Position numbers: made by a program | In this document: piece after piece, positions 18,001 to 24,000 of the stretch | Layout of the letters: each line of letters begins with the position of its first letter | How positions within the stretch are numbered: position 1 is the first letter of the stretch | IMG/VR virus record: IMGVR_UViG_2703718802_000001 | Reading direction: 5' to 3' (one strand) | Source: a virus | Taxonomy: Duplodnaviria; Heunggongvirae; Uroviricota; Caudoviricetes | DNA length: 29,795 bases

Positions 18001-21000
18001 GATTTTTTCTTTGTGATTTCATCAAGCGCATACTTAAAAGCTCTGCTAATCGGACTGATGTCTGATGCCATGCCAAAAGCACACAAGACCGAAGCTATAA
18101 ACCTCCAGTCTGTTCTGCTTATCTTCGATTCATGACAGCCAATCATCTTTGCCAGACCGCGCTGGGTAAGCGTTGACAGGTTGATGAGTAAATCAGTTTC
18201 AGCGCGATCAATTTCTCGCTGTGATAGTTTGCTGTAACTTGTTTGTTCCATTTCTTAAGATTTCCAATAGTGAATAGCTAGTTGAAAGGTATGCGTGGAA
18301 ACGCATATGGCCTTAGTTGGTCAGATATATTGGGACTCGCTTTGTCAGCGACGTAGGACGAATGTCCATTGTGAAAATAGCGGTGTTACTTATGCAGCCA
18401 GAAGGTTCTTTTTGCTTATTTCAAGCATTTCGCTTGCTTGATATTTGCCACCAGAAATCTCTTCGATTTTTGATGCGTATTTAGTTTTCCCAAAAAACTC
18501 AGTCTTAGGGAGGAAGCCGTTTTTGAGCCACTTATAGACAGCCCTTTCGCTAACTCCACAAGCCTTCGCAACTTCAGGGATGCCGACACCTTTAATCGGC
18601 TCATCAAGATTTTGCATAGGAATATCCTTTTTCGTACTTTCAGTACGTATTATGGTTGAACTGAAAGTTTTTGCAAGTGCTTTAGTATCGTACTCATGGT
18701 TCAGAATGAAAAAATGCGCAAAGAATTCGCCCAGCGGCTAGCGCAAGCCTGTAAAGAAGCTGGTCTTGATGAACATGGTAGGGGAATGGCTATAGCCCGT
18801 GCCCTTTCTCTTTCGTCCAAAGGCGTTAGCAAATGGTTTAATGCTGAGTCTTTACCGCGTCAGGAAAAAATGAATGCGCTTGCGAAATTTCTAAACGTTG
18901 ATGTTGTTTGGCTTCAGCACGGCACTTCGTTAAATGGAGCGAATGATGAAGATACTCTTTCATTTGTTGGCAAATTAAAAAAAGGGTTAGTGCGCGTGGT
19001 TGGTGAGGCAATTCTTGGTGTTGATGGTGCCATCGAGATGACCGAAGAGCGCGATGGGTGGCTCAAAATTTATAGCGATGATCCAGATGCCTTTGGTCTT
19101 CGTGTGAAAGGAGACAGCATGTGGCCCAGAATAAAATCAGGAGAATATGTACTCATTGAGCCTAACACCAAAGTATTCCCGGGTGATGAGGTGTTTGTCA
19201 GAACCGTTGAAGGACACAACATGATTAAGGTTCTTGGCTATGACAGAGATGGAGAATACCAATTTACAAGCATTAACCAGGATCACAGGCCTATAACGTT
19301 GCCTTATCATCAAGTAGCAAAGGTGGAGTATGTAGCTGGTATTCTGAAGCAATCTCGCCATCTGGATGACATCGAGGCAAGGGAGTGGCTGAAAAGTTCG
19401 TGACTTCATCGTCACATAGCTGGTAACCAGTGGCCTGAAGAGACGTTTGGGTAAGGAGGATAGATGGCGTTCAATGACCTTGAATATCAAGCAGTAAAAA
19501 AAGAAGTTCACCAATTCATTGAAAGCATAAGGCCGCCTGAACATATCCGCAATGAACTGGATATTGTTTATAGCATCAATGACCAAACGATAGATATCGG
19601 CGAACAGCGCCCCGTGTGGCAGGGCAATCCAGGTGAAACAAACATCCTGCCATCAGCAAGAATCAAGTACATACGTTCTCTGGATAGATGGAAAATCTAT
19701 TGGATGCGGAAGGATATGAAATGGCATCAGTACAGTACTGAACTTTCGCTGACTGATGCGCTTGAGCTTGTGCGTGCTGACCCGGATTGCTGCTTCTTCG
19801 GATGAGTGAAGAGACGTTTGGATGATGGATGGTCGCAGAGATGCGGCCTGATTCTAAAATAGGGTATAAAAAATGAGAATACTAGGTGTTAGAGCGGCGC
19901 CCAAAGTTACATCTTTTGTTGTATATTGCACTAATGAGTCTGCACTCAAATGTGTTGATGTTATTAAAATACCTTCGACCTTAGACACACCAGAAAAATT
20001 AAAGTATGTGAGAAATAACATCCTCGACATTCTTAATTTATATAATGTTGAATTAGCTGCCATACGCGTTACTGAATCAAACTCTGATAATCTTAGCATT
20101 GACCGCCTTTATATAGAAGCTGTTATTCAAGAAGCATTTTCAAGCAGTGATGTAAGAAAATATTACACTATTAGAAAATCTGGCATGAAATCATCATTGA
20201 ACCTAACAGAGATCGAGTATAAAGAAATATTGAAGTCACACCGCAATATAAATGGAATCGATAATTCTGGTTTTACAACTGAAACAAATGAAGCTGTTTT
20301 GGCTGCACTATCTGCGGAGGTAAGGGGATGCTAACTCCATACAAAAGAGCTGATGTAGAATTCGAATGGATTAGTGATCTAGAAGAACAGGGTTGTTTTT
20401 CAAAAGTATATCTGGCTCATGACAGACACCTAGCTCATGACTTGGTGATTAAAGAAATAGAAAAAAAGAAAACACTAACCACGACGACTACTTTAATGAA
20501 GCAAGGCTTCTCTATAAACATGCACATCCAAATATTGTGCAAGTTCAGTATGCTGCTCAATGTGAGAGCAATATCTATATAGCCATGCCATTTTATCATA
20601 ATGGTTCGCTAAACCAATTAATGAAAAAAAATAATCTTACAAGCAGGGAGATAATACGGTATTCCATTCAATTTTTAAGTGGACTTTATCATATACACTC
20701 AAAAGGTCTTATGCATTTTGATATAAAACCTAATAACATTATGATATCAAACAGAAATGAGGCCATGCTATCTGACTTTGGATTATCTCAGTTAGTCAAT
20801 GAGGAATCGAGAGCTGCGCCTGAGTTTGGATATCATTTTCATGTGCCACCGGAATATTTTTCTTTATCAACAAATGATTATAATTTCACATATGACATAT
20901 ATCAGGCAGGATTAACCATATATAGAATGTGTGTTGGACATGATAATTTTGAAAGAGAAAGATCTGCATTTAGCACGATTGAACAACTCAGAGAGTCGAT

Positions 21001-24000
21001 AATTAATGGCTGCTATCCATTAAAAGAGTATCCTCCCCATATACATAAAAAATTAATAACAATAGTGAACAAATGCATTCATGTAGATCCAAATGAAAGA
21101 TATCAATCCGTACTAGATGTACTAAACGATCTCTCAGCTATAAGTGATGGCGTTCTTGACTGGCGTCTACAGATGACGAAACCAACTAACGGCACATGCG
21201 AATGGCAAAAAAAGTCTGGGGACGCTATACTGTCTATAGTTTTTGACGCAGAAAATTCGTCTACTACTGGTTTTCGTTTATACGATGATGGGCGGAAAAG
21301 GCGTGCTACGAACTTAACAATATCCTCAGGATGTACCCCTACAAAACTGTATAGGTTATTAAAGGATAACTGATCATGAAAAAGCGCGAGGAAGTAAGCA
21401 AGCTGCCTCGCAGACGTGATGCAGCATTAGCGGTTCCCTACAAAAAAGATGAGTTCATAAGCCCTTCTGATGACAAAAAATTTTCAAAGGCGAAAAGTTT
21501 TACATCTACATCTCTAAAAGATAAATACTTTAAAATCTAGCCCGGCCTCAGCGCCGGGTTTTCTTTGCCTCACGTTCGCCCACCTAAAAAACATAACCAA
21601 TTGTATTTATTGATGTAACTCGCTAAACCATGCAGTTATGATCCCTGCCGCATAACCTTCATCAGCCACATTTTCAAAAATAAATTTCCTTATATATCAG
21701 AATCATACTTCGTAGAGTTAATAAATCACCAAAATTCGTACCAATAGTTCTTGATAATGTCGAACTATTGGTTCATTATTATCGTCGTCAGCAGGACGCA
21801 TTACTCACCAGGGCGGTGAATATACAACGATTCGAATATGAATCTACGGCGCTGACAAAGCGCAATAACCAAAGTGAACTTTGGGGTGTGGTGAAGGGTT
21901 CATGGACGGGAATATGTCGCACGTAAAGCGGCGAGGCCTGCGGGACTATTGCCGAATTGAAGTAGGCCGAAACAGGTCGAAATGGGTCTCCCACCTACCA
22001 CACCACCAAAGTTCATCAGGAGGTCTATATGACACGCAGAACTCAGTTCAAAGGCAATTCACGTTCTCGTCGTCGTGAGCGTTTAAAGGCAAAGGCATTA
22101 GCTAACGGCGTACTGGCCCGCGAAGAAGCAATAAGTTCAGAAGTATTACACCGCCCTACTCTAAGCAGAGCGCAGATTCAGGCTAAAGGTACTCACGAAA
22201 CGCCTGAGCGCATAGAAGACGCTAAGCCAATTAAGTTCATGGCACAGGACGTGATCTGGCAACAGAAAGAATACAGACGCAATCTGGAGCGAGCGGCCAT
22301 TGTGTACGCGAATGAGTTTGGACATAAGCAACCAGAAACTGGTGTATGTCTTCCAAACGTAGCCATTTACGCGGCAGGCTACCGGAAATCAAAACAACTG
22401 ACGGCGAGGTGACTTGTGTTGGTCGCCAGAAAATGAAATTAGGCAGCAAACCACTTATTTGAGGTGAGATATGACAAAATCATGGAGCGTACCTTTTCCT
22501 GAATCAGAAACTGAACATGATGGAATGCCTGTTTTCTGGAGATTCCAGGCGACAGTTGAAGAAGATGGGATAAAAATATTCGCACTTCAATATATAGCTT
22601 TTCATCAGACAGAGCATTATGCATGGTTGGTTCCTGCGCATTGGATTGTTAATTTTAAACCAGCACCAAATCAGTGGTTACAGGAATGGAAACAAAGGAG
22701 AAATAGATATGCAATTAAGAAAGTAGCAAAAAATGCAGAAAGATCTTTTGCATTCCCAACGAAGAAACTTGCCATTGAAAGTTTATTGCGCCGGAAGAAA
22801 TACCATTTAATGAGAATCAAACAAGATTTGGCTGTTGTATCAACTCTTGTTGATGGTATGAAGAATATTGATACATCAACACCAGATATTGAATATAACT
22901 TTGGACACAACCAAGAAACAGAAAATTGGGTATTTTATTAGTACGAATAAGCACTGTGTATTCATTCCAACGAGTGAATACACGGAGCAATGTCGCTCGT
23001 AACTAAACAGGAGCCGACTTGTTCTGATTATTGGAAATCTTCTTTGCCCTCCAGTGTGAGGGCAATTTTTTTGACGGAGGATATATGAAATTACGTGTCT
23101 GGCATATCCCGCAAGTACCTATGAAGCCGTTCATTGTAGAAGTGGCAAGTGTTGAAGAGGGTGTTCGTCTGATGGACGCACTGGCTGATTATGACGCCTT
23201 TCAGTATGACAACAACATCAAGCCTGATTACTGCAATGCTAACGGCCTTGAGATGTGGGATGAGAGCCTTACCGATGAAGATTTATCAGAGATGGGGCTT
23301 ACTGATCGCTGGGTGGATTGGTACAGCGAATGCCAATGTTACGACGACCCACGTAAATATCTCGAAAGCCTGAAAGAAGAAACATCAGCCGCCTAAGCGC
23401 GGCTTTACCGCATACCAATAACGCTTCACTCGAGGCGTTTTTCGTTATGTATAAATAAGGAGCACACCATGCAATATGCCATTGCAGGGTGGCCTGTTGC
23501 TGGCTGCCCTTCCGAATCTTTACTTGAACGAATTACCCGTAAATTACGTGACGGATGGAAACGCCTTATCGACATACTTAATCAGCCAGGAGTCCCGAAA
23601 AATGGATCAAACAATTATGGCTATCCAGACTAAATTCACTATCGCCACTTTTATTGGCGATGAAAAGATGTTTCGTGAGGCCGTCGACGCTTATAAAAAA
23701 TGGATATTAATACAGAAACTGAGATCAAGCAAAAGCATTCACTACCCCCCTTTCCTGTTTTCCTAATCAGCCTGGCATTTCGCGGGCGATATTTTCACAG
23801 CCATTTTCAGGAGTTCAGCCATGAACGCTTATTACATTCAGGATCGTCTTGAGGCTCAGAGCTGGGAGCGTCACTACCAGCAGATCGCCCGTGAAGAGAA
23901 AGAGGCAGAACTGGCAGACGACATGGAAAAAGGTCTTCCACAGCACCTGTTTGAATCACTCTGTATCGATCATTTGCAACGCTGCGGGGCCAGCAAAAAA

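Follow-up and report, generated by a model that had tools for sequence, protein, structure and literature searches.

Between the cI repressor gene and an intrinsic terminator of a Shiga-toxin (Stx) prophage recorded in IMG/VR (IMGVR_UViG_2703718802_000001; the window is the full stretch of 29,795 nt, and all coordinates are window positions) lies a block of genes that includes stk, which encodes a Hanks-type protein kinase. The block is the already known lysogenic (PRM) accessory operon of a 933W-type Shiga-toxin phage: across 2,197 nt it is 99.9% identical to phage 933W (NC_000924), with the same gene order and the same terminator, and it differs from 933W by substitutions at 19779 and 19864 and by a 1-bp deletion in stk. 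The same immunity region is found in 933W, phi24B and many Stx1 and Stx2 phages, and matches spanning at least 80% of the block query are present in 39 phage records and in 193 complete E. coli genomes. The reading proposed here, to which a probability of about 0.65 is given, is that the interval from cI to the terminator holds two independent insertions, a gene of the DUF3024 family on the one hand and, on the other, a cassette of a RuvC-fold pseudo-nuclease, the Stk kinase and a small basic protein, which would act as one complex with the kinase as effector.

The operon opens with cI (18696–19403; Pfam HTH_3 and Peptidase_S24), the first gene of the lysogenic PRM transcript and annotated in 933W; this gene and all the features listed in this paragraph are on the plus strand. 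In the RefSeq annotation of 933W the order is cI, L0084/p24 (DUF3024), L0083/p23 ("RuvC-like Holliday junction resolvase"), stk, L0081 (hypothetical) and tM, and the record also annotates the pM promoter and the operators by cI. The counterparts in the window are an open reading frame (ORF) of 113 aa, present in the ORF list at 19464–19805 and preceded by a strong Shine-Dalgarno sequence, AAGGAGG; an ORF of 153 aa (19873–20334), called "res" in phi24B and the first gene of the cassette; the stk region (20328–21373), which encodes 348 aa in 933W and is frameshifted here; an ORF of 54 aa with a pI of 10.0 (21376–21540), the third gene of the cassette; and the terminator tM (21539–21568), a G+C-rich hairpin followed by a T-run, found by a terminator scan as well as in the 933W annotation, which closes the PRM transcript. 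A sequence-only reading had described four AT-rich genes on the cI strand ahead of a terminator; strand, order and hairpin are borne out, but only three of the four are AT-rich. The G+C content is 0.348 for the 153-aa gene, 0.355 for the kinase and 0.376 for the 54-aa gene, as against 0.447 for the 113-aa gene, 0.451 for cI and 0.467 for the whole window, so that there is a step from 0.447 to 0.356 between the 113-aa gene and the cassette. The same reading had the ATG of the 54-aa gene overlapping the kinase stop, whereas the two are separated by a 2-nt gap (stop at 21371–21373, ATG at 21376), and the overlap is found instead between the 153-aa gene and stk, the ATG of which (20328) lies within the 3' end of the upstream gene (ATGCTAA, stop at 20332–20334).

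The position of the block had been likened to that of rexA and rexB in lambda, and the terminator confirms it: this segment is 93% identical to lambda 35767–35824, a stretch whose first base immediately follows the rexB stop, so that the block fills the rexA-rexB slot exactly. The likeness to the lambda genes extends to the place downstream of cI, the transcription from PRM, the homologous terminator and the expression of abortive-infection functions in the lysogen. The difference lies in the products, which resemble those of lambda in neither sequence nor domains; no Rex family is among the Pfam matches of the window (DUF3024, a weak RuvC and Pkinase), and the Rex effector is an ion channel rather than a kinase.

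The evidence for a cassette comes first from searches anchored on the RuvC-like protein, in representative genomes (one genome per species) and in viral loci of IMG/VR with room downstream. A Stk-type kinase lies directly downstream of the RuvC-like gene in all 39 representative genomes and in all 68 IMG/VR loci; the kinases of the representative genomes are 341–355 aa long (E 1e-62 to 1e-133) and overlap the RuvC-like gene or start at most 10 nt from it, the loci with a frameshift or a contig end in the kinase yielding pieces only. When the search is anchored on the kinase, the RuvC-like gene is upstream in 42 of 42 Stk-family viral loci (two sampled kinase loci stand outside this count, one on a truncated contig and one with an unrelated kinase), and it is also upstream of the kinase in Pseudomonas, Elizabethkingia and Acinetobacter loci. 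The 39 loci span gamma-, beta- and alpha-proteobacteria, Bacteroidota, Firmicutes and Acidobacteriota, and the co-occurrence persists at protein identities down to about 30% and in unrelated genomic contexts. In the window, the arrangement of a RuvC-like gene adjoining a Stk kinase (about 340–355 aa) is found in the form of the ATGCTAA overlap. Elsewhere the cassette lies directly after diverse prophage repressors, beside an Abi_2 and reverse-transcriptase system adjoining an integrase, beside an LlaJI-type restriction-modification system and ArdA, as a moron among the tail genes of an Acinetobacter prophage, or near methyltransferases and Old/AriA-like ATPases; these are the contexts of mobile defence genes. 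No relevant report of a defence system of a kinase and a RuvC protein was found in the open-access literature, which is weak evidence of absence, and the architecture of RuvC-like gene, stk and small ORF appears to be undescribed in the open literature searched.

The small ORFs of the block had been thought to have no recognizable function, and this does not hold for two of them, the 113-aa product being a DUF3024 protein and the 153-aa product having an RNase-H-like RuvC fold, as found by a fold search. At the level of sequence, the 153-aa protein does not qualify as a RuvC: a search of PDB sequences with the profile of its family gave no RuvC match, and Pfam RuvC (PF02075) scores 14.2 bits, under the gathering cut-off of 22.2. 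Clustered at 50%, its family comprises 442 representatives (E ≤ 0.001), of which nearly all measure 145–170 aa. In the hhalign alignment with E. coli RuvC, the residues G-V-R7 face the G-I-D motif that carries the first catalytic Asp, and Arg7 is present in 120 of 121 diverse members, so that the catalytic carboxylate tetrad of RuvC lacks its strand-1 Asp; other invariant or near-invariant residues in the 121 members are G5, R47, E68, R78, E82, E87 and E140. Because the strand-1 Asp is the most conserved catalytic residue of the fold, a protein with Arg7 is read as a pseudo-nuclease, which would retain the RuvC scaffold.

The 54-aa protein matches PHROG 4063 (E 2.5e-39) and has relatives in Proteus and Klebsiella prophages. 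A basic ORF of 45–90 aa that starts between –30 and +25 nt from the kinase stop is present in 35 of 38 loci, compared with 7.3% of random positions, and the commonest junction between the kinase and the small ORF is an ATGA overlap. Hidden Markov models (HMMs) built from one proteobacterial group detect the small ORFs of other groups, with E values down to 3e-6. PADLOC has no model for either the 153-aa or the 54-aa protein.

The 113-aa gene behaves differently. Its product is a full match to Pfam DUF3024 (E 2e-31; 108.9 bits, cut-off 24.9) and to PADLOC PDC-S43, a single-gene candidate of that database (E 5e-42, over the full length, positions 1–115 of 115), and DUF3024 is mentioned in no paper of the open-access literature searched. 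The AlphaFold2 model of the protein has a predicted local distance difference test score of 90 and an alpha-beta5-alpha fold; a fold search with this model gave no confident relative, and the modelled fold resembles small protein-binding inhibitors. A weak phmmer hit (E 0.07) to AvrPto, an inhibitor of a plant kinase made by bacteria, was put down to chance and rejected, as the model is alpha+beta and there is no match to a helical bundle, the fold of AvrPto. Remote-homology and structure searches had been suggested for all three small products; they thus gave the RuvC fold for the 153-aa protein, a family assignment with no confident fold relative for the 113-aa protein and PHROG 4063 for the 54-aa protein. 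As to the distribution of DUF3024, the kinase cassette is absent at 40 of the 68 IMG/VR DUF3024 loci with room for it and present at 28, while DUF3024 is absent from 38 of the 39 representative-genome cassettes, the exception being Proteus penneri, which has all four genes. For many Stx2a phages and P22-like Salmonella phages, the match to the window is confined to the segment between the cI stop and about 19847, and the DUF3024 gene is flanked on either side by breaks in DNA homology. This gene is always the first behind the repressor, and the cargo that follows it varies: Salmonella phage SE1 has a ParA-like AAA_31 ATPase there and SH2026Stx1 an unrelated, unannotated gene of 177 aa, neither of which bears a clear defence annotation; this suggests a variable cargo slot behind DUF3024. 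Since it occurs without the kinase cassette, DUF3024 is best taken, on the pattern of its occurrence, as a separate one-gene module and an unrelated neighbour of the cassette. The proposal that the whole block forms one multi-gene kinase module survives in part, with the conserved order of 153-aa gene, kinase and small ORF speaking strongly for it and the independent occurrence of the DUF3024 gene against it.

The kinase had been described as a single ORF, which is not what the window holds. It has an A7 homopolymer at 20461–20467 where 933W has A8, and this 1-bp deletion shifts the frame after Lys46 and splits stk into a 5' piece of 84 aa (20328–20582), with the G-loop and Lys42, and a 3' piece of 278 aa (20537–21373), with the catalytic loop, the DFG motif and the C-terminal extension; the intact 348-aa frame of the 933W type is not present in the window. 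Pfam Pkinase (PF00069) matches only the 278-aa piece (E 4.7e-34; 118.4 bits, cut-off 31.7) and only from model position 65, so that the ATP-binding N-lobe lies in the other frame. The residues K42, E58, D132, K134, N137 and D150-F-G are invariant across 20 members of the family, and the features of a Hanks-type kinase (VAIK Lys, alpha-C Glu, HxD-x-K-x-x-N loop and DFG) are all found, spanning two frames in the window; the C-terminal 70–80 residues are the most variable part of the family, in contrast to the catalytic motifs. At E ≤ 1e-10, the Stk family counts 543 kinases. The catalytic loop reads HFDIKPNN, and by the Hanks motifs loops of this kind are of the Ser/Thr type. The catalytic loop of Stk is thus predicted to be of the Ser/Thr type, as against the tyrosine specificity stated in PMC3681748 and PMC3564112.

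The frameshift is rare and not the sole one of its kind. The A7 allele is carried by 6 of the 224 complete E. coli genomes that have the stretch, and 219 of 225 matching records have the in-frame A8; in E. coli RM10410, stk is annotated as a pseudogene by the NCBI annotation pipeline. Near-identical IMG/VR loci have three disruptions of stk, namely A8 to A7 (two contigs), A4 to A3, five bases beyond the A7 site, and A8 to A9, in a second tract at 20624–20631, and two distant members of the family, in Pseudoalteromonas and on one viral contig, also have split kinases. Homopolymer sequencing error and real inactivation of a costly suicide kinase are equally plausible causes of these recurrent breaks, and the deletion in the window could likewise be a sequencing error of this kind. 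The zero frame of the A7 allele reads A_AAA_AAG at 20462–20468, the classic –1 slippery heptamer of the dnaX type, and a –1 slip there would recreate the exact wild-type Stk. A GGTGA lies 12 nt upstream of the heptamer, and no stimulatory structure was found downstream of it (z –1.0). Programmed –1 frameshifting at the A7 tract was considered and rejected, as the stimulatory structure is missing and the allele is rare; any slippage there would be leakiness. With the stk frame broken, the module of the window has probably lost all or most of its activity, and –1 slippage would at most make it leaky.

The expression of these genes in lysogens from the repressor promoter, as well as the link between a phage kinase at this locus and superinfection exclusion, had been anticipated, and both are published, the expression for identical genes. 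In lysogens of phi24B, the block of which is identical to the window genes, 2D-PAGE (two-dimensional polyacrylamide gel electrophoresis) with MALDI (matrix-assisted laser desorption/ionization) gave the proteins P2 of 17,096 Da ("similar to 933W p23") and P3 of 13,472 Da ("similar to p24"), assignments for which the MASCOT scores were non-significant (PMC3342100). The masses computed for the window products are 17,096 Da for the 153-aa protein and 13,473 Da for the 113-aa protein, in agreement with P2 and P3. By quantitative PCR, the p23-like and p24-like transcripts of phi24B are lysogen-restricted and about 10-fold and about 100,000-fold, respectively, above cI (PMC3342100). In RNA-seq data, induction left the levels of both cI and stk as they were (PMC4651098). 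According to the introduction of PMC3564112, the kinase gene of 933W shares its transcript with cI, and the kinase aborts HK97 infection; in a phosphoproteome paper, Stk is a eukaryote-like tyrosine kinase that is activated upon HK97 infection, has little or no activity in uninfected cells and, once activated, kills the cell (PMC3681748). The 3' end of cI contains, at 19282–19310, a sequence resembling a promoter (ATCACA-17-TATCAT, 9 of 12 matches); such sites occur at chance level in the region, and this one is notable solely given the abundance of the DUF3024 transcript relative to cI in phi24B (PMC3342100).

Among known systems, the closest is the stk operon of 933W and phi24B itself, the Stk of which is the published HK97-exclusion kinase (PMC3681748, PMC3564112); beside the shared gene order, terminator and sequence, the window differs in its frameshifted stk and in its Stx2d-type host prophage. 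The Hanks-type kinase domain of Stk matches two PADLOC models, PD-T4-6 (E 1e-37) and mad6 (E 7e-50), but the alignment is limited to that domain, at about residues 20–275, and the Stk family has a C-terminal extension of its own of 70–80 residues, the RuvC-like upstream gene and the small downstream ORF, none of which is in the PADLOC models. In surveys of O157:H7 that used PADLOC, a single strain is reported to have both PD-T4-6 and PDC-S43 (bioRxiv 10.64898/2026.07.23.740414). In staphylococci, a phage protein activates the eukaryotic-like kinase Stk2/PacK, and the phosphorylation of host proteins by this kinase leads to abortive infection (PMC13276650). Phage-triggered abortive infection by a kinase is thus the likeness to Stk2, whereas lineage and architecture differ and no RuvC-like partner is described for Stk2.

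As stated above, the interval between cI and tM is most probably made of two insertions. The first would be the solitary DUF3024 gene (PDC-S43), the second an AT-rich, horizontally mobile cassette, the genes of which are translationally coupled or abut each other. The three products of the cassette would assemble into one complex, in which the kinase would be the effector, the small protein a regulator or a pseudo-substrate, and the dead RuvC-like subunit a sensor or regulator that may bind branched DNA or a resolvase-associated phage protein, for example NinH. Activation of Stk reportedly requires gp68 of HK97, a result that is said to go back to Friedman in 2011. The gene numbering of the HK97 record (Gp65 roi ... 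Gp69 Q) makes gp68 the protein of the NinH family adjacent to the RusA resolvase, and a dead resolvase fold that would detect a resolvase-associated protein or branched DNA is an attractive model. A more far-reaching version, in which the cassette is a phylum-spanning three-component defence with a catalytically dead RuvC-fold sensor of a phage cue (branched recombination DNA or a protein such as gp68), a co-translated small basic protein that gates Stk, and poly-A tracts that serve as recurrent on, off or attenuation switches, is tentative and put at somewhat less than even odds. Several points weigh against the three-component complex. The glutamates E68, E82, E87 and E140 of the 153-aa family are invariant and could form an alternative active site, and the loss of nuclease activity is deduced from a single substituted residue. 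The enterobacterial small ORFs, which include the 54-aa gene of the window, and those of Bacteroidota gave no statistically significant homology to other groups in the cross-group HMM searches, and the 54-aa protein shares with the distant small ORFs just position, size and charge. The assignment of gp68 to NinH depends on the gene numbering of the HK97 record. Finally, the secondary literature (PMC3681748, PMC3564112) credits the exclusion to Stk alone, and PADLOC lists PD-T4-6 and similar defence kinases as systems of one gene.

The last two points are also the case for taking Stk as the whole exclusion system, with the RuvC-like gene and the small ORF as passengers: HK97 exclusion is attributed to Stk only in that literature (PMC3681748, PMC3564112), and PADLOC groups the kinase with the single-gene PD-T4-6 models and has none for the 153-aa and 54-aa proteins. 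This is unlikely in view of the strict two-way co-occurrence, with overlapping or abutting codons, in at least four phyla and in unrelated contexts, as passengers would be expected to be lost or swapped in the way that DUF3024 is. The opposite extension, by which DUF3024 would join the three cassette products in a single four-component system, can point to their common operon between cI and tM, to the 28 of 68 IMG/VR DUF3024 loci that carry the cassette and to Proteus penneri with all four genes, but it becomes quite improbable when DUF3024 is missing from 38 of 39 cassettes, the cassette is missing at 40 of 68 DUF3024 loci, other cargo takes its place in SE1 and SH2026Stx1, and both the G+C step and the breaks of DNA homology set the DUF3024 gene apart.

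The two remaining alternatives concern what the cassette is for. It could chiefly be a toxin-antitoxin or addiction module that stabilises the prophage, with the kinase as toxin and the small or the RuvC-like protein as antidote; activation of the kinase is lethal (PMC3681748), stk is repeatedly broken at homopolymers (three near-identical and two distant cases), as fits a costly gene, and the tightly coupled small basic partner resembles the layout of an antitoxin. Against it stand the absence of HipA and other known toxin kinases from the Pfam matches, the little or no activity of Stk in uninfected cells (PMC3681748) and the location of the cassettes in defence islands and prophage moron slots, which together make addiction as the chief function improbable, if slightly less so than the four-component system; it is in any case compatible with abortive infection too, rather than a true alternative. 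That the 153-aa protein is an active Holliday-junction resolvase for phage recombination, as it is annotated in RefSeq, in PHROGs and, as "res", in phi24B, is the least probable reading of all, in that 120 of 121 members have Arg in place of the first catalytic Asp, Pfam RuvC stays below its cut-off (14.2 against 22.2 bits), the gene belongs to a lysogenic operon with a lysogen-restricted transcript (PMC3342100) and is always paired with a kinase, outside phages too. Moreover, the prophage has a RusA resolvase of its own (9809–10168, minus strand) beside NinB, RecT and an exonuclease, so that its recombination needs no 153-aa gene.

The prophage around the operon encodes a toxin A subunit, Q, antirepressors, Dam, NinB, O/P and RecT/exonuclease, and its closest genome is the Stx2d prophage of E. 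coli RM10410. An ORF with a ribosome-inactivating-protein domain, the Shiga toxin A subunit, lies at 7442–8614 (minus strand) and the Q antiterminator ORF at 9185–9718, and it is by these two ORFs that the window is recognized as an Stx2-converting prophage. At 9636–10455 (minus strand), the YbcO-like protein and RusA are 98% and 97.5% identical to gp66 and gp67 of HK97, and the NinH of the prophage (9636–9806, minus strand) is 67% identical to gp68; the DNA homology with HK97 ends within ninH, and the two Q genes bear no relation to each other. Divergence of NinH as a means for the prophage to avoid triggering its own kinase was considered and rejected, given a mosaic junction inside ninH and a different Q module. 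Just downstream of N, a 156-aa ORF (22471–22941) lies in an AT-rich patch (G+C content 0.364 for 22501–23000); its one match is to PHROG 1636 (unknown function), Pfam gives none, and it may be another moron. In the ea10/ssb-like region, the window diverges from 933W at 23054–23400 and 24537–24600 and has an extra 64 nt; E. coli RM10410 has ISVsa5 insertions in this region, which the window does not have.

The locus is a textbook one for Stx phages and already annotated, and as first described it adds little. What appears to be new, in the open literature searched, is that Stk belongs to a widespread cassette of RuvC-like gene, kinase and small ORF, to which DUF3024 is an unrelated neighbour. 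As the kinase is frameshifted in this prophage, exclusion of the HK97 type is not to be assumed for it. Tools for the annotation of defence genes score the locus as PD-T4-6 and PDC-S43, two single-gene hits without relation to each other, and miss the RuvC-like gene and the small ORF, and the only experimentally characterised tyrosine-kinase abortive-infection system of a prophage may have been studied without its obligate partners.

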